A DNA stretch of 64,000 nucleotides from Candidatus Aenigmatarchaeota archaeon. GTDB lineage: Archaea; Aenigmatarchaeota; Aenigmatarchaeia; Aenigmatarchaeales; Aenigmatarchaeaceae. Below the pieces are notes generated by a model. The model saw only the letters and a program-made list of their open reading frames with translations, was not told the DNA's origin and searched no databases. The position numbers and the translations under genes were made by a program. Shown piece after piece: positions 36,473 to 64,000 of the stretch. The stretch spans positions 1 to 64,000 of the forward strand of contig JBDRJK010000011.1 in assembly GCA_043814985.1 (NCBI GenBank). The letters run 5' to 3'. How positions within the stretch are numbered: position 1 is the first letter of the stretch; each line of letters opens with the position of its first letter.

Positions 36473-37708
36473 ATGGATAATGGAATAGTTGATTTCTGGT
36501 CTTTACCCCATGACAAAATTTATTTAAATTTAGAAAATGAATTAAAGGAAAAAATTTTCAATTCTTCAAAAGAATATGCTGGGAGCTGGAGCAAATTAGG
36601 AAAATGTCTTGGCCTTTCCCTAAACAAATATGGAAGCTGTAAAATTATAGAAAGTGCTAGATGTAAAAAATTTAGTTTATTTTTACTTGATAAAATTATA
36701 GATTATTTGAATTCTAATGGCGAGAAAATAGATAAGAAGAATATAGAAAAGAAAATAACAGTACTTTCCTCTAAAAGAGGAGGTTCAAACAAGTTAGCCA
36801 ACAGTATTTTCAATCCAAAGATACCCTTTAATTTTAATACTGTTGACGGTGCTACTGTCCTTTCTTCCATTTTTTATGATGGTGGAATTAACAGCAACCT
36901 ATTGCCTCATTATAGTAATCCAGACAATGTAGAACTGAGGAAAAGTGTGTTCGATTCTTTCACAAATGTTTTTGGCACATTCAAATCTAAAAAAAGCAAC
37001 CCCTTAGAAAATCCTCAGCTATACTTCCCAAAAATAGTCGGAGTAATTCTTGTTTATGGTTTAGGATTATCTTATGGAAGAAAAGTTGTAAATAATCCAT
37101 CCATACCAGAATTCTTATTTGAATCCTCTGAAGAAATAAAATCATCATTTCTTCGACAAGCCTTTGATGATGAAGGCTCTGTCCACAAGACTAAAAGAAA
37201 TATAAGTTTCAAATTGGCCTCTTCTTCTGAAAGACCTGCTAAACTTCTTACCGGTGTAAAATGTCTGTTAGAGAGTCTAAACATAGAGAGCAATGGTCCT
37301 CATTATGTTGATACATACAATACTAAGAACGGCATTACAGCTTCCAGATGGAGAATATCTGTAACACATCAAGATAATTTAAAAAAGTTTTATGAAAAAA
37401 TTGGTTTTCATTCATCCTATAAGAAAAATAGACTTAAGAATATTATTCATACATTAAAATACCCTCATTATTCTGTTAAAAATAGAAACAAAATTATTAT
37501 AAAATCTTGCAGTGAACTTCAAAAAAGATACGGTTTTATAACTAGCAGAGAACTTGCAATACAAATCGACAGAAGTCGGGTCTTAGCTAAAAAGGTTATT
37601 CGAAAATTAGTAGATAGGAAAGTTCTCTTAGTTAAAGAATGCCGCCATGGAAATATGGGAGCTAAATATGTTTTAAGTGATAATTATGAATCTTTGTGTA
37701 AGATGTAA
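36473..37708 (+). mobile_element. free-standing double-motif LAGLIDADG endonuclease with C-terminal winged helix
   Basis: motifs SSIFYDGG and FLRQAFDDEGSV, FYEKIGF; no intein splice residues; AT-rich. Confidence 0.85.
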
Positions 37709-38900
37709 AGGTACTAGGATTTTATGTGGAAAAAGTAGTTGTCCATTGTTGATAAAGTTCTATAGTTATATGAGAACTAAACCACTTATTGATTCGACTA
37801 CTCTCAATGGTTCATCGCCACCAGCTTGCTTTGTAGGTTCTTATGGATATCCCAAGGTTTTCGTGGGGCCCTTGGTGCCGCCGAAACACGGTGACACCAG
37901 CTTCATGGACACGCCTGAGATGTGGAGGGGCAAGACAATGTGGGACATAGTCGACTTCAGGTTCCAGCTGGTGAGGGGCAAGTTCGTGACTGATGTCAAG
38001 AACTTTGAGGGAAAGATAATCGAGCGGACTAGGGAGATTGCCCTGGCTCAGGAGTCTCCCAGTGCTGAGGTTGAGTTCAAGAACAAACCAAGAGGATTAT
38101 CCTTTAACAGTGAGACACAGCCCTTTGGTCCGTCGGCAAATGTCATTGGCCTTAATATTGAAAACAAGGGCTACAACAAGAAAATAGAAAAAGCGTTCTA
38201 CGACACTGACCTGAAGGCTGTGCCTGCTGTTGTTGATCTTTACAAGAACGGCGTGCTGATTTCAAAAATACAGAAGGCTTTTTCTGTGGGTGCGTTTGGA
38301 ATCGGAAAGAGCAGGAGATTCGTTCCAACGCGCTGGAGCATAACAGCTGTTGATGACATGATTTCAAAACATCTCATAGAGCAGGTAAAAACATTCCCGC
38401 TGATAAACGAGTATCTGGTTTACGAGCACGCTGCTTTGGACAACCGCTGGTTTGTTTTAATGATACCACACGAATGGAGTTACGAGCAGATGGAAGCGTG
38501 GTATCCCAAGACATTGTGGAACCCGTCTGATGCAATTGACATATCAACAGCATGGGAAGGTTTCAACGGACTAAAGGGCTATCCGGATACAGCTGGCTGC
38601 TACTTTTCCACGAGGCTGGCTGCCACCGAGTACCTTGCCAATGAAAGGAGGCAGGCTGCTGTAATAGTATTCAGGGAAATCCATCCAGGTTACACTGTTC
38701 CTGTGGGTGTCTGGCACACCCGAGAGAGCATAAGGGATGCTGTCAAGAAAACTCCTGTTAGATTCAGCTCAATGAGTGGCGCCTTGGACTATCTGTCAAA
38801 GAAGATGACCATACCTGTTAAGAGGTGGGTTGAAAAATCCAGTCTTCTTAGGAACCTGATGCGACAGAGAAAGCTGTCAGACTTCATCAAGCCTTTCTAA
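37686..38900 (+). CDS. nreA: Nre DNA repair protein
   Basis: CxxCKG...LCG...CP, GSSPP.FVG..GYPKV, VPTRWSITAVD, C-terminal PIP box QRKLSDF. Confidence 0.93.
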   Translation: MNLCVRCKGTRILCGKSSCPLLIKFYSYMRTKPLIDSTTLNGSSPPACFVGSYGYPKVFVGPLVPPKHGDTSFMDTPEMWRGKTMWDIVDFRFQLVRGKFVTDVKNFEGKIIERTREIALAQESPSAEVEFKNKPRGLSFNSETQPFGPSANVIGLNIENKGYNKKIEKAFYDTDLKAVPAVVDLYKNGVLISKIQKAFSVGAFGIGKSRRFVPTRWSITAVDDMISKHLIEQVKTFPLINEYLVYEHAALDNRWFVLMIPHEWSYEQMEAWYPKTLWNPSDAIDISTAWEGFNGLKGYPDTAGCYFSTRLAATEYLANERRQAAVIVFREIHPGYTVPVGVWHTRESIRDAVKKTPVRFSSMSGALDYLSKKMTIPVKRWVEKSSLLRNLMRQRKLSDFIKPF

Positions 38901-59613: not shown

Positions 59614-60975
59614 ATGTTAAACAATTATTCTCCAAAAATAAGGAATGTTCTGAAAAAGGGTAAGATAAAGGTTGGAGACAGGATTTCTGTTACAAAAGGT
59701 AAGAAGACTTATGAGGGCCTGTTGATGCCTAGAGCCGAGATAGGAGATTTGAATTCTATTGTAATTAAATTGGATAATGGTTACAACATAGGCATAAGGT
59801 TTGAGAAAGGAACAAAAGTTAATAAGAGCAAGAAGAGAGAGCCCAGGAAAATCAAGGATGAGATGAAGTTCGAGATGGGTAAGGAGAAGTTCAAGAAACT
59901 GAAATTCGATCCTAAGAAGCCTAAAGTAGCTCTTATAATGACTGGTGGAACTATTGCTTCTAGAGTTGATTACAAGACAGGCGGTGTCAGAGCCTTGGAA
60001 AAGCCAGAGGAGCTTGTGGCCAATGTTCCTGAACTGAAGGATATAATCTACATAAAGGATGTTTCCACTCCCTTTAGGAAGATGTCTGAGGACTTGGGTC
60101 CAAAGGACTGGCAGAAGTTGGCAAAGGTAGTAGCAAGAGAATTGAATAAAAACAGGGGAGTGATAATTGCTCATGGAACAGACACTATGCATTATACTGC
60201 TGCTGCCTTGTCTTTCATGCTGAAGAACGTCTCCAAGCCAGTTGTTTTAGTTGGTTCACAGAGGTCTTCTGACAGAGGAAGTTCTGATTCTTCAATGAAC
60301 CTTATCTGCGCTGCCCATGTTGCCATATCAGACATCGGGGAAGTTGGAATATGCATGCACGGCTCAACAGACGACCATTACTGCTATTTCACAAGAGGAG
60401 TAAGTGCACGAAAACTTCATAGTACCAGAAGAGATGCTTTTAAGTCAGTTAACGAGCCGCCCCTGGCAAAAGTCTTTCCAAGCGGCAAGATTTCAATTAT
60501 TAACAAGAATCATAAGAAAAGGGGTGATAAGAAAGTAATAGCTGATGTCAAGTTCGAGCCCAAGGTTGCTTTACTGAAAGTTTATCCAGGAAGCGATCCA
60601 GAGATTATGGAATTTTTGCTCAAGAAAGGCTACAAGGGATTTGTCATTGAGGGAACTGGAATGGGACATGTTCCTACATCAGCTGAAAAGTCCTGGATAC
60701 CTACCATTAAGAAATTGACAAAGAAGGGCATACCAGTTGTCATCACAACGCAGACAATATACGGCAGGGTCAATCCTGATGTTTACACGAACCTGAGAAT
60801 CCTGTTCCACGAGGCAGGGGCGATTCCTGCGGAAGATATGCTTAGTGAAGTTGCATACATAAAACTTGGTTGGTTGCTAGCACATTATAAGAATATAAAC
60901 GATGTAAGGAAAATGATGTTAACCAACATGGTGGGAGAAATAAGAGACAGGTCTACTATTGATTCCTTCTTTTAG
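59614..60975 (+). CDS. gatD: Glu-tRNA(Gln) amidotransferase subunit D
   Basis: KLDNGYNIG, TGGTIASRVDY, HGTDT, SQRSSDRGSSD. Confidence 0.97.
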   Translation: MLNNYSPKIRNVLKKGKIKVGDRISVTKGKKTYEGLLMPRAEIGDLNSIVIKLDNGYNIGIRFEKGTKVNKSKKREPRKIKDEMKFEMGKEKFKKLKFDPKKPKVALIMTGGTIASRVDYKTGGVRALEKPEELVANVPELKDIIYIKDVSTPFRKMSEDLGPKDWQKLAKVVARELNKNRGVIIAHGTDTMHYTAAALSFMLKNVSKPVVLVGSQRSSDRGSSDSSMNLICAAHVAISDIGEVGICMHGSTDDHYCYFTRGVSARKLHSTRRDAFKSVNEPPLAKVFPSGKISIINKNHKKRGDKKVIADVKFEPKVALLKVYPGSDPEIMEFLLKKGYKGFVIEGTGMGHVPTSAEKSWIPTIKKLTKKGIPVVITTQTIYGRVNPDVYTNLRILFHEAGAIPAEDMLSEVAYIKLGWLLAHYKNINDVRKMMLTNMVGEIRDRSTIDSFF

Positions 60976-62167
60976 CAGAGAAGATGGAATCCCGGTTTTT
61001 AATGAAAATTTTTACTGAATTCATATCCTTATTAATATTTTCCCTCCCTTCATTATTGACTTTCTTGTATTGTAGAATTTTATTTAAGAGTGCCAATTTT
61101 TTATACGGGTTTAATTCAAAGATGTCATTTTTGTATAGCTTCAGAAAACCATCTAGATTCGTTATTATAATTCTAGGAGGAGATGTTGATGTGGCCTTTG
61201 AAGGGGACGACTTTATATCTAAAAGATTTAGGCATTGGTTTGCCACAGCTAATTCATTATTGTTAACTGAAGCGAATTGAACTGCTCTATCATAACTTCC
61301 TACGTAAGCCTCTCCGGCTAAATAACCTTTGAGATAGTATACTGCTAACTTTCTGTTGCCAATTACTTTCTCTTTAACATGCTCCAATAGTTTTAATATG
61401 ACTCTTCTAAAGATGGTGTTATTGTAATAGATATCTGTAGAACCCCATGGAACATTTTTCCTCATCTTGCCCTTTGTATTTTTAGTATAGTGTGGCGAAC
61501 TAGATTGCTCATTATTGGGACTTAATTTTGTAGTTTTTAGCCAAAACTCTCTAGATGCCTTTTCATCAGATTCTGTATACTTTCTCTTAAGTTTTCCATT
61601 GAAGATTATTCTCCATTTCAGTTTTTCAGGGCTTATTTTAAAGAATTTGAAAAAATCTAAAATCCTTTGTATCATAACAGGTTCGCTGTTAACAAATTCT
61701 AAGCTCTTTGGATTAGTCTTTGTCGCTTCAGCCACTAACAGACCGCAAGAAGACACAATTAACTCATTTAAGGGTATTTCTTTAGGGATAAACATGTAAT
61801 GATTTTTATAGCCTTTGTTGTAGTGTGAAGTACTGTACCAAAGATATGAATAATTTTCTGGTACAACTTTTTTGATTTCTATCCTTTTTACCAGCCTCCA
61901 TTTATCTGAGAATCTGAATGATTTATTGATTTTTCTTCCTTCCGTTCTTTTGACAATTTTCTTATTTTCAAGATTTGATAGGACTTTTCTTACTGTCCTC
62001 TTTTTATAGTTTGAGGACTTGTATATTTCTTTTGTTGTTTTGGAACCATCTTGCAACAAGTCCGTGACCCTCAAATCCAAAGGCATTTTGTCTATAATTT
62101 TTTCTCCACTATTCGAGACTTTAATTTTACTGTCATTTTTTACCAATTCCTTTGTTAGAATTTTCAT
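60956..62167 (-). mobile_element. free-standing double-motif LAGLIDADG endonuclease-like protein with N-terminal winged helix
   Basis: CGLLVAEAT...FVNSEP and YLKGYLAGEAYV motifs; HTH KTTKEI...TVRKVLSNLE; AT-rich. Confidence 0.75.
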
Positions 62168-62220
62168 ATATCTTAGTTCCTCTATCTATATTTAAAAAGT
62201 TTTGTACAACTTATATAAGT

Positions 62221-62291
62221 GCTAAAAAAATGTTAATTGGTATTATGATAGATATTACAAAGAGGACAGAGATAGAGACTTTTATGGTGTA
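62221..62291 (+). pseudogene. degenerate displaced 3' end of gatD
   Basis: AKKMLIGIMIDITKRTEIET aligns in register with GatD RKMMLTNMVGEIRDRSTIDS. Confidence 0.55.
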
Positions 62292-62295
62292 GAAA

Positions 62296-62607
62296 ATGGT
62301 AGAAATGACAAAACAAGAAGAATTTTTAAATTTAATAGAGAAAATTGACGGAAAGAATCCAAGATTGTTTTTGGAACTGTTTATGAAAAAATATAATCAT
62401 GAAATAACTGATTATTGTTATGTGACAAGTTGCGAGCACAATCATATTGAAGGTACTTCCCACAAAGCTTTCTTTTATGAGATATTGGACGGTTCCCAAT
62501 TGTGGGTAAAGGATTCCATAGGTAAGATAGTCACCATATCTTACAATAATTACAGAAAAGATGTCATGGAAGTCTGGAGGGAGCGTCAAAAAAGGAGGAA
62601 TGGCTAG
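62296..62607 (+). CDS. hypothetical protein
   Basis: 103-aa ORF abutting gatE. Confidence 0.6.
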   Translation: MVEMTKQEEFLNLIEKIDGKNPRLFLELFMKKYNHEITDYCYVTSCEHNHIEGTSHKAFFYEILDGSQLWVKDSIGKIVTISYNNYRKDVMEVWRERQKRRNG

Positions 62608-64000
62608 ATGACCGATTACAAAAAGATAGGTTTCAAATGTGGAATAGAAATTCATAATCGTCTAGACACGAAAACAAAACTGTTCTGCAACTGCAAACCA
62701 AGATTCTCTGAATCAAAACCAATCTCATTAATCAAGAGAAAACTCAGGGCAGTGGCAGGAGAAACTGGACAAGTGGATGTTGCTGCATTATATGAATATC
62801 TGAGAGATAGGACATTCTTCTACCAGTGCTATCCTGATGAAACATGTTTGATATGCATAGACGAGGAGCCTCCAAAGTCTGTAAACAAGGAAGCATTGAA
62901 TGTTTCGTTGCAGGTAGCAAAGCTTTTGAAAGCGGAAATACCAGATGAAATCCATATAATGAGGAAAACTGTTATTGATGGTTCTAACACCTGCGCCTTC
63001 CAGAGAACAGCAATCGTAGGTATGAACGGAGTCTTGAAGACATCACAAGGAGACGTTGGAATAACTAATATTTCTTTGGAGGAAGAATCAGCAGGCAAAG
63101 TAAAAAAAGAAGGCAATGAACTAACCTACAGATTAGACAGATTGGGCATTCCTCTTGTTGAAATGGGGACAGCACCTGACATAAAGAGTCCTGAGCATGC
63201 AAAAGAAGTTGCTGAGAAGCTGGGAATGATGATAAGGTCAACAGGCAAGAGCCAGAGAGGTATTGGTGTTACAAGACAGGACGTCAATGTTTCAATCAAA
63301 GGTGGAGCAAGAGTCGAGATAAAGGGAGTTCAAGAATTGGACATGATACCCCAGCTGATTAATAATGAAATCAAGAGGCAGCAGGAAATGATAAAGAAAG
63401 GAAAGAAACCCAAAGAAGAAACCAGAATAGCAAAAGCAGATGGGACAACCGAATTCACAAGGCCCCTGCCAGGAGGAGAACGATTATACCCGGAGACTGA
63501 TCTGGAGAGCATTGTAATTACAAAGCCATTCCTTTCAAAGATAAAGGTTCCTGAGACATGGGACCAGAAGGCAAAAAGATTCAAGAACAAATTGCCAAAA
63601 GAAATGGTTGATCAAATACTAAGAAGCGAATACTTGGATTTGTTTGAAAAGTTTTCCAAAACTTACAATCCTGTTTTGGTTGCCAATACATTCACATCAA
63701 CTGTAAAGGACTTGAGTCGCCAAGGTCTTGAGACAGAATTTACTGAAGAACAGTTTGATAATATTTTCTCTTCTGTTAAGAACAAAACAATTTCAAAGGA
63801 AGCTATACCTAACATTCTGGAAATAGTTGCCAGGGAAAAAACTTCTGTTGAGCAGGCAATAAAGAAGAGCGGCCTCAAGGGCATGTCAGAGGATGATTTG
63901 AGAAAGATAGTGAAGAAAGTAATTGAAAAACACCCTAACCTAGTCGAGCAAAAAAGAATCCCCCCTCTAATGGGAATAGTAATGAAGGAAGTCAGGGGAA
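62608..64000 (+). CDS. gatE: Glu-tRNA(Gln) amidotransferase subunit E, runs off the window; lacks AspRS-like insertion
   Basis: manual translation MTDYKKIGFKCGIEIH, IDGSNT..FQRT, DRLGIPL, RQDVNVSI, EIKGVQ, RPLPG..RLYPETD. Confidence 0.95.
   Translation, partial: MTDYKKIGFKCGIEIHNRLDTKTKLFCNCKPRFSESKPISLIKRKLRAVAGETGQVDVAALYEYLRDRTFFYQCYPDETCLICIDEEPPKSVNKEALNVSLQVAKLLKAEIPDEIHIMRKTVIDGSNTCAFQRTAIVGMNGVLKTSQGDVGITNISLEEESAGKVKKEGNELTYRLDRLGIPLVEMGTAPDIKSPEHAKEVAEKLGMMIRSTGKSQRGIGVTRQDVNVSIKGGARVEIKGVQELDMIPQLINNEIKRQQEMIKKGKKPKEETRIAKADGTTEFTRPLPGGERLYPETDLESIVITKPFLSKIKVPETWDQKAKRFKNKLPKEMVDQILRSEYLDLFEKFSKTYNPVLVANTFTSTVKDLSRQGLETEFTEEQFDNIFSSVKNKTISKEAIPNILEIVAREKTSVEQAIKKSGLKGMSEDDLRKIVKKVIEKHPNLVEQKRIPPLMGIVMKEVRG

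Follow-up and report, generated by a model that had tools for sequence, protein, structure and literature searches.

Towards the end of the window analysed here, a stretch of 64,000 nucleotides from an archaeon of the Aenigmatarchaeota (contig JBDRJK010000011.1), gatD and gatE are held apart by a gene on the opposite strand, ORF403, and by a short remnant of a second gatD end. An initial annotation of this DNA had placed an antisense winged helix-turn-helix LAGLIDADG gene between the two, overlapping the gatD stop by 20 bp, and our coordinates agree with it. The features of the locus are listed in order of position.

59614..60975, forward strand: gatD, 453 aa, complete; mosaic, with a native body and a 3' tract of foreign origin.
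60844..60975, forward strand: 3' tract of gatD that came from the donor, covering residues ~411-453 and the stop; left edge approximate.
60943..60975, forward strand: new last 10 codons and stop of gatD; the 3' 20 nt double as the 3' end of ORF403 on the opposite strand.
60956..62167, reverse strand: ORF403, winged-helix and double-LAGLIDADG endonuclease gene, the mobile core of the proposed cassette.
62189..62196, reverse strand: TATA box TTTAAATA of ORF403, -29 to -22 from the ATG; putative promoter.
62221..62256, forward strand: degenerate 5' half of the gatD-tail relic, with 21/36 mismatches to the native sequence of the genus.
62257..62292, forward strand: native half of the relic, the last 11 codons and stop of the lineage's original gatD; 31/36 nt identity to G001 and G002.
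62296..62607, forward strand: ORF103, a small conserved gene with 86% amino-acid identity to the G002 copy.
62608..63999, forward strand: gatE, running off the window end.

GatD matches the NCBIfam GatD equivalog NF003217 as far as position 419 of 420 and contains the Pfam domains GatD_N, Asparaginase and Asparaginase_C. It is convergent with ORF403, and since gatD ends at 60975 on the forward strand and ORF403 at 60956 on the reverse strand, the two overlap by 20 bp at their stops (60956-60975). Further downstream, ORF103 has no Pfam or NCBIfam match, and gatE matches the NCBIfam GatE equivalog NF003107 (E 4e-167). Comparison of the gatD-gatE loci of relatives, which the initial annotation had proposed as a check, revealed an empty site in G002, a genome of the same genus: there the order is gatD-ORF103-gatE without ORF403, ORF103 lies directly 3' of gatD, and the end of gatD matches the relic of our window. 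The DNA of G002 aligns with window positions 59932-60950 and resumes from 62251 onward, and the relic stop lies 3 nt before the start of ORF103, as against 2 nt between the gatD stop and ORF103 in G002. Both insertion junctions are covered by contigs from three runs in two studies with zero differences, and the insertion is not an assembly artefact.

The relic at 62221-62292 is in a frame that stays open up to a stop at 62290-62292, so the single T that was originally thought to need restoring is unnecessary. Translation of the live gatD ends with the stop at 60973-60975, 1.2 kb short of the relic, which leaves the latter outside the host protein. A 25-column HMM made from the GatD C-termini of 27 relatives, the window being excluded, was run against the complete six-frame translation of the 808-kb genome (36,155 peptides). 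The live GatD came first (E 1.7e-11) and the relic peptide second (E 0.0063, 16.8 bits), followed by a third match at E 0.51. When 62200-62289 was shuffled 2000 times and each shuffle was scored by the best of three frames, none reached the real 17.6 bits and the best attained 6.8. The relic, for which such a score against shuffled controls had been suggested as a test, thus exceeds by a wide margin what shuffled sequence and the rest of the genome yield, and chance similarity was rejected as its explanation.

The two halves of the relic differ. An HMM restricted to the last 11 columns ranks the relic first in the genome (E 0.016), tblastn of the native half against relatives' GatD ends gives E 1e-4, and over the last 11 GatD residues the relic is identical to G002 at 10 of 11. 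At the nucleotide level, 62257-62292 has 5/36 mismatches to G001, 5/36 to G002 and 7/36 to G003. An HMM of the 14 columns upstream of these misses the relic, and for this reason we do not claim its first 11 residues as proven homology. The mismatches of this half (21/36 against 5/36 in the other; Fisher p 1.7e-4) leave an in-register similarity to the native sequence that is equalled by 3.2% of the 36-mers of the window. Of the relic as it was first described, the 3' half, that is the last 12 codons with the stop included, is therefore clearly native (31/36 nt), whereas the 5' half is degenerate (15/36 nt). Judged by sequence, 62257-62292 is the native end of this lineage's former gatD, and the displacement of the old C-terminus, as initially claimed, is borne out by the match of the relic before ORF103 to the gatD end of G002. 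The segment 62221-62256 aligns with the relics of other loci of the family, at the same distance from the promoter; because its similarity is barely above chance, we go no further than to infer that it probably arrived as part of the cassette, which would have acquired it in a previous host.

The live end of gatD, for its part, is foreign. It resembles none of the tails of 28 relatives and is one residue shorter than the tails of the genus, and its residues 443-453 are identical to the GatD protein P0029 at 9 of 11 positions and to G002 at 4 of 11. Identity to G002 amounts to 260/311 in the body of GatD and 20/36 in the tail (p 2e-4). From residue 411 on, the sequence follows P0029 rather than G002 at 15 of 17 informative sites, compared with 21 of 64 in the part that precedes it (Fisher p 5e-5), and a maximum-chi-square test on the DNA places a second step at 60951 (p 0.014). 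A P0029-type patch is also found at GatD residues 180-215, so the informative-site signal is noisy. The endonuclease P0002 is the closest relative of ORF403 (71% identical), and both P0029 and P0002 come from a Logan contig with a reported length of 25,820 nt; given the equal size and the source, this is very probably the same contig. It had been proposed that the element supplied a new gatD end, and a tail unlike those of 28 relatives and sharing 9 of 11 residues with P0029 agrees with this; the foreign tract that had been assumed was, however, too short, since it spans about 43 codons from nt 60844.

ORF403 is an intact reading frame of 403 aa, of which residues 36-79 match the Pfam TrmB winged helix (E 3e-6). 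Against Pfam LAGLIDADG_3 (PF14528) it scores 14.0 bits, below the 22.5-bit cut-off, and PF14528 is assigned in precomputed annotation to 24 of the 27 members of its family; an NCBIfam search of ORF403 returned noise only. Searched against PDB sequences, the family profile matched winged-helix regulators alone (best E 0.003) and no LAGLIDADG protein, which made a fold search necessary. The AlphaFold2 model (pLDDT 85.9, pTM 0.84) presents a two-fold pseudo-symmetric alpha-beta-beta-alpha-beta-beta-alpha fold, and its top Foldseek matches in the PDB are to I-DmoI (E 2.8e-5, probability 1.00, target-normalised TM 0.68); other matches are intein endonucleases, the bI3 maturase, I-OnuI-type enzymes and WhiA (3hyj, 3hyi). 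The structure prediction that had been asked for thus yields a LAGLIDADG fold, and as modelled ORF403 is a two-domain LAGLIDADG endonuclease fold with an N-terminal winged helix. Its LAGLIDADG helices are predicted at 135-147 and 272-286, each closed by an acidic residue. In the alignment of the 27 family members every sequence has these two residues, E147 and E286, and 43 further columns are likewise invariant, at an identity to ORF403 of 36-42% (71% for P0002). The TATA box at 62189-62196 would be the ORF403 promoter, and a family-conserved leader block downstream of it is kept in all 11 aligned upstream regions.

The gatD case had been rated as weaker on account of its degenerate relic, a judgement that no longer holds, as loci throughout the family show the same layout. 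Wherever the sequence of another locus extends past the 3' end of the endonuclease gene (22 loci, 15 distinct by GatD tail), this gene abuts the gatD 3' end, and in all 22 the two genes are convergent, from a 2-nt gap to a 27-nt overlap. A GatD-tail relic lies on the gatD strand just past the endonuclease promoter in 10 of the 15 distinct loci and in L060 (E 3e-12 to 2e-3), the remaining non-gatD peptides of the family loci giving nothing below E 3.4. No relic was found in two distinct loci (L036/L052 and L038/L058), L057 gives a weak match only, and in L048 and L053 the upstream DNA is too short to judge. A second host clade, that of G042, repeats the pattern of a foreign live tail and a native relic: the live GatD tail of L039 is of a distant type, and the 23 closest gatD loci of the clade mostly have native tails of the same type as the L039 relic. 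Among the relatives of G042, none of 29 stored gatD loci has the endonuclease inside flanks of ~1.5 kb.

Within the order, just 1 of 42 genomes has a full-length family match. Presence and absence are thus seen at one fixed site, which is empty in G002, occupied at full length in 1/42 order genomes and beside gatD in 22/22 loci. In the genome itself we found no second copy of ORF403, the family profile matching elsewhere nothing but a stop-containing fragment of 124 aa on contig 12, and the viral contigs searched contained no family member. The ORF403 copy is 100% identical in two studies, and among the contigs of the runs that hold the organism (three runs, two studies) none joins across the insertion or represents an empty-site allele. 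The invariable place beside gatD is, taken by itself, also compatible with a fixed functional partnership.

In our view, ORF403 very likely encodes the endonuclease of a homing cassette that is free-standing and has the 3' end of gatD in DPANN archaea as its specific target. This reading builds on the insertion and its empty site, the foreign tail and the native relic, the fold with both acids and the family-wide layout. The transferred DNA would run from about 60844 to 62256 and comprise four parts, namely a foreign copy of the last ~43 gatD codons, by which the essential gene would remain complete; the endonuclease gene, antisense to gatD and overlapping it at the stop; the endonuclease gene's own conserved promoter; and a decayed remnant of an older gatD tail. 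We infer that ORF403 cleaves DNA, where it cuts, and that the cassette entered by homing: the enzyme would cut cassette-free gatD alleles near the 3' end, and the break would be repaired from a donor with the cassette, with the left crossover inside gatD and the right crossover inside the old gatD tail (62256/62257 in our window). What had been the final 11 codons and stop of the recipient gene (62257-62292) would be stranded before ORF103-gatE as an untranslated relic, which would act as the right-hand homology arm of the element.

A different history, which we regard as unlikely, is that the insertion took place as described and the endonuclease is by now inactive or immobile, being either a fossil or a protein with a shifting role at a purely vertical locus. 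Such a state would fit the absence of an empty-site allele among the contigs of the three runs, the identity of the copy in two studies and the score of ORF403 below the Pfam threshold. Against it, the 403-aa frame is intact, and both acids and 43 other columns are invariant in a family which, P0002 aside, is 36-42% identical to ORF403. The native half of the relic also differs from G001 and G002 at only 5 of 36 positions, which is no higher than the divergence of adjacent coding sequence (about 19-23%) and suggests that the cassette arrived recently.

It seems very improbable to us that ORF403 is a domesticated winged-helix/LAGLIDADG DNA-binding regulator of gatD-gatE, similar to WhiA and vertically inherited with many losses, even though it lies beside gatD in 22/22 loci, its N-terminal winged helix is of the regulator type, and its promoter and leader are strongly conserved. 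The gene is full length in 1/42 genomes of the order and in 0/29 gatD loci of the second clade, foreign live tails with native relics occur in two unrelated host clades, and the acids at the catalytic positions are invariant; moreover, an ancient vertical insertion would not have left a relic that still agrees with same-genus alleles at 31/36 positions. We give almost no credence to a local duplication of the gatD 3' end with the endonuclease gene landing later between the copies, neither of them foreign. Two gatD tails 1.3 kb apart are what such a duplication would leave behind, but it is the translated, selected copy that departs from the genus (4/11 identical to G002 over the last 11 residues, against 10/11 for the relic), the live tail shares 9/11 residues with the GatD linked to the nearest endonuclease relative, and the arrangement is repeated in other clades.

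If the homing cassette that we favour is correct, gene-end replacement by homing endonucleases, so far described mainly in fungal mitochondria, would also occur on the chromosomes of ultra-small archaea, with the essential tRNA-amidotransferase gene gatD as its archaeal target. The cassette would explain a two-lineage mosaic in a core marker gene, which is relevant to phylogenies using such genes. It would also define an endonuclease-target pair, ORF403 and the G002-type gatD end, and its homology arms suggest a reason why 'dead' gene ends persist. A full-text literature search found no paper that ties LAGLIDADG genes to archaeal gatD. More tentatively, DPANN archaea may possess a class of self-contained 'gene-end replacement cassettes' that home into the ends of essential translation genes across genera, each made up of a LAGLIDADG endonuclease with a winged helix, a conserved promoter, a gene end that substitutes for that of the host, and a relic as homology arm. 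Should this class exist, core genes would be mosaic and operons such as gatD-ORF103-gatE broken; the relic would be retained because the element needs it as its right-hand arm, and the outer end of the cassette may also provide the promoter from which ORF103-gatE is now expressed.

Among known systems, the bacterial transcription factor WhiA resembles ORF403 in combining a LAGLIDADG fold with a helix-turn-helix. In WhiA, to our knowledge, the helix-turn-helix is C-terminal, the catalytic acids are absent and the protein is universal in its clade; ORF403, unlike WhiA, has an N-terminal winged helix, keeps both acids and is sporadically distributed. Domestication of the WhiA kind, with loss of the acids and universal vertical inheritance, was considered and set aside, the acids being invariant and the full-length gene present in 1/42 genomes. 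The free-standing seg and mob genes of T-even phages, examples of 'intronless homing', lie between or at the ends of conserved genes and spread by break repair that co-converts flanking markers; their enzymes are of the GIY-YIG or HNH type and phage-borne, and we know of no case in which a duplicated gene end is kept as a relic. The best structural matches of the ORF403 model are the archaeal monomeric two-domain LAGLIDADG enzymes I-DmoI, I-Tsp061I and PI-PfuI, which share with ORF403 two LAGLIDADG helices, each with a terminal acidic residue, at a sequence identity of 11-13%. The genes of this group reside in rRNA introns or inteins and encode about 170-190 aa per core, whereas ORF403 is free-standing and 403 aa long, with about 130 extra N-terminal residues (winged helix plus beta region) and a C-terminal helical tail.

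In fungal mitochondria, mobile ORF elements (mORFs) are described in atp6 of Allomyces macrogynus, in atp6, atp9, cox2 and nad3 of Glomus sp., in atp9 of Rhizopus oryzae and in cox2 of Mortierella verticillata (PMC3630166). There, a LAGLIDADG or GIY-YIG endonuclease ORF lies near the 3' end of an essential gene, whose reading frame continues into an inserted C-terminal segment of foreign origin; the native C-terminus persists downstream of the ORF and groups with the host's close relatives (PMC3630166). In Glomus atp6, the native part is 91% DNA-identical to a sister species, as against 63.5% identity between the two copies (PMC3630166). mORFs and the gatD cassette are alike in having an endonuclease at the 3' end of an essential gene, a foreign in-frame end and the native end beyond. 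At gatD, the in-frame foreign end leaves a protein complete to position 419 of 420, and the native end is kept past the endonuclease, outside the GatD protein. In other respects, the gatD cassette departs from mORFs: its host is an archaeal chromosome and not an organelle, its target is gatD, its endonuclease carries an N-terminal winged helix and is encoded antisense with its own TATA-box promoter rather than in phase with the host gene, and the relic in our window would join an old half to a native one.

The insertion described here splits gatD from ORF103 and gatE. The genome that carries it (808 kb in 21 contigs, of which the window is contig 11; about 91% complete) has a size expected for a DPANN archaeon, and the GatD encoded in the window covers positions 3-419 of the 420 in the NCBIfam equivalog profile NF003217. 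The initial annotation had placed an antisense gene between gatD and gatE, overlapping the gatD stop by 20 bp, and the coordinates bear this out:

59614-60975, + strand: gatD, complete (NF003217)
60956-62167, - strand: ORF403, 403 aa, its stop region overlapping that of gatD by 20 bp
ending at 62292, + strand: short open frame, called the relic below, with its stop codon at 62290-62292
62296-62607, + strand: ORF103, 103 aa, without a Pfam or NCBIfam family
from 62608, + strand: gatE (NF003107 match)

GatD was matched in 38 of 41 genomes searched (the window's own and 40 relatives), from which 30 loci were retrieved, and a tblastn search with ORF403 over 31 loci matched only the window's two copies. 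Comparison of the gatD-gatE loci of relatives, proposed earlier as a check, revealed an empty site in G002, a genome of the same genus, where gatD (80% amino acid identity) is followed by ORF103 (86%) and gatE (84%) with no gene interposed. The G002 DNA aligns to 59932-60950 of the window at 78% and resumes at 62251-63784 at 81%, and a five-way DNA alignment places both insertion junctions at the same gatD codons; thus about 1.3 kb of the window is absent from G002. The stretch preceding ORF103 in the window is the counterpart of the gatD end of G002. ORF103 was not found in the gatD-gatE spacer of the other relatives' loci. That spacer is variable among relatives: its length lies anywhere between 0 and about 1.4 kb, the small genes within it differ from genome to genome, and in several genomes gatE is absent within 1.5 kb of gatD. 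Two relatives' loci (in G012 and G014) each have one in-frame TAA inside the GatD match.

The relic had been proposed to be a degenerate GatD end at 62221-62291, and its 3' half proved to be well preserved. We searched the six-frame translation of the genome, 36,155 peptides in all, with GatD C-terminal HMMs built from 27 relatives, the window excluded. With 25 columns, live GatD came out on top (E 1.7e-11), followed by the relic peptide (E 0.0063), and no other peptide scored better than E 0.51; the relic scored 17.6 bits against at most 6.8 in shuffled sequences, none of 2000 equalling the real score. With the last 11 columns alone, the relic is the best match genome-wide (E 0.016) and the live tail falls outside the best eight, while an HMM of the upstream 14 columns did not pick up the relic in the same scan. 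The two halves differ accordingly at the DNA level: 62257-62292 mismatches G001, G002 and G003, all of the same genus, at 5, 5 and 7 of 36 positions, versus 21 of 36 in the degenerate 5' half, 62221-62256 (Fisher p 1.7e-4). The relic is a mosaic, its 5' half decayed and its native 3' half almost intact. The frame is open to its stop at 62290-62292, so the single T thought to be missing need not be restored.

The live tail of gatD is foreign to the genus. The last ten residues of the window's GatD resemble none of the tails of 28 relatives; the G001-G003 tails are of a common, relic-like type, one residue longer than the window's live tail. The closest non-self protein to residues 404-453 is P0029 (86% over that part), which has 76% identity to the whole of the window's GatD but shares 9 of the final 11 residues, versus 4 of 11 for G002. 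P0029 is listed for one Logan contig, 25,820 nt long, and P0002, the sole close relative of ORF403 in the family search (71% identity), for a contig of equal length, from which we infer that their genes are probably neighbours. At informative sites, those at which the window matches either G002 or P0029 but not both, the window is P0029-type at 15 of 17 from residue 411 (nt 60844) onward versus 21 of 64 upstream (Fisher p 5e-5). Identity to G002 is likewise lower in the tail, at 20/36 versus 260/311 for the body (p 2e-4), and a maximum-chi-square scan of the DNA locates a step at position 60951 (p 0.014 by permutation). The signal is not clean, because a run of seven informative sites at residues 180-215 (nt ~60151-60258) is also P0029-type; this patch may be noise or the trace of an earlier conversion. 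The observation in the initial annotation is confirmed, and its interpretation, that the element displaced the old C-terminus and supplied a new one, is supported and extended.

The same arrangement was found across the endonuclease family, for which scans of genome contigs yielded 6 loci and those of metagenome contigs 17. In all 22 loci extending past the endonuclease 3' end, gatD is convergent with the endonuclease gene, the spacing ranging from a 2-nt gap to a 27-nt overlap. These collapse to 15 distinct GatD tails. A broader GatD-tail HMM detected a second tail, on the gatD strand and directly beyond the endonuclease gene start, in 10 of the 15 and additionally in L060 (E 3e-12 to 2e-3), and no other non-gatD peptide at these loci scored below E 3.4. 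With this HMM no relic was found in L036/L052 and L038/L058; in L048 and L053 the upstream DNA is short, and L057 gave only E 3.4. Of 41 genomes searched around L039 (its own genome, G042, together with 40 relatives), 39 have a GatD match, and the endonuclease was found in none of the 29 gatD loci retrieved from the relatives. In most of the 23 nearest relatives, GatD ends in a short native tail that agrees in type with the relic next to the L039 endonuclease gene, and the live tail of L039 is of a type confined to relatives at around 50% identity. A second host clade therefore shows the same combination, a live tail that is foreign and a relic that is native.

ORF403 is predicted to adopt a LAGLIDADG fold, as had been proposed. 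Pfam detects a TrmB-type winged helix (residues 36-79, E 3e-6), and its LAGLIDADG_3 match falls below threshold. By database search, the family numbers 27 proteins of 374-410 aa with the query counted, 24 of them with precomputed PF14528, and their alignment has 45 invariant columns, among them the motif ends E147 and E286. In the AlphaFold2 model built on this alignment (mean pLDDT 85.9, pTM 0.84), helices 135-147 and 272-286 terminate at these residues. The best Foldseek match in the PDB is I-DmoI (E 2.8e-5, probability 1.00, target TM 0.68), so the outcome named beforehand as refuting, an ORF that does not adopt this fold, is not borne out; further matches include intein endonucleases, bI3 maturase, WhiA and I-OnuI-type enzymes. 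The winged helix may add contacts to the target or let the protein regulate its own gene at the conserved putative promoter. Among 11 endonuclease upstream regions, the window's included, TTTAAATA is invariant at -29 to -22 and the block from there to the ATG is conserved. The 40 nt before the ATG (window 62168-62196; L035-L059) are conserved in all 11, far better than the proteins at only ~40% identity, which suggests a regulatory role, perhaps as a target of the winged helix of the endonuclease itself.

Within the window's order, the family is full length in 1 of 42 genomes (E 4e-152), with weak partial matches elsewhere in three. Contigs from three runs of two studies, one of which runs may be the window's source, cover both junctions without difference, and no contig of those runs bypasses the insertion. 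Contig 12 of the same genome (10064-10444) holds a 124-aa fragment resembling the middle of the family (E 6e-9, one in-frame stop), possibly the decayed remains of a copy inserted elsewhere. A second LAGLIDADG_3-bearing ORF in the window (411 aa, 36473-37708) overlaps the start of the next gene, a putative nreA (37677-38900). Genome-wide, the PF14528 cut-off is exceeded at 8 places in 7 loci.

We infer that the cassette homes. The predicted enzyme would cleave a naive gatD close to the 3' end, and mending of the break would copy the donor's gatD tail together with the endonuclease gene and its putative promoter. The left crossover would fall within gatD, here at about 60844, and the right one in the tail copy already carried by the donor beyond the promoter, here at 62256/62257. 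Such a right crossover would explain the mosaic relic, service as a right-hand homology arm would explain why relics are kept across the family, and copying of the donor tail would explain why the live tail tracks the endonuclease rather than the host.

A full-text literature search found nothing joining LAGLIDADG, gatD and archaea, and no paper on free-standing endonucleases in archaea or DPANN was on topic by its title and the start of its abstract. Among known systems, the mobile ORF elements of fungal mitochondria come closest. In the passages of PMC3630166 that concern them, Glomus atp6, atp9, cox2 and nad3 have each received a C-terminal segment and a LAGLIDADG or GIY-YIG ORF, with their own native C-terminal segment lying downstream, and Allomyces atp6 is cited as the first example. 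In contrast to these, the host here is an archaeal chromosome and the target is gatD; ORF403 is antisense with its own putative promoter, its predicted endonuclease includes a fused winged helix, and the relic is a mosaic.
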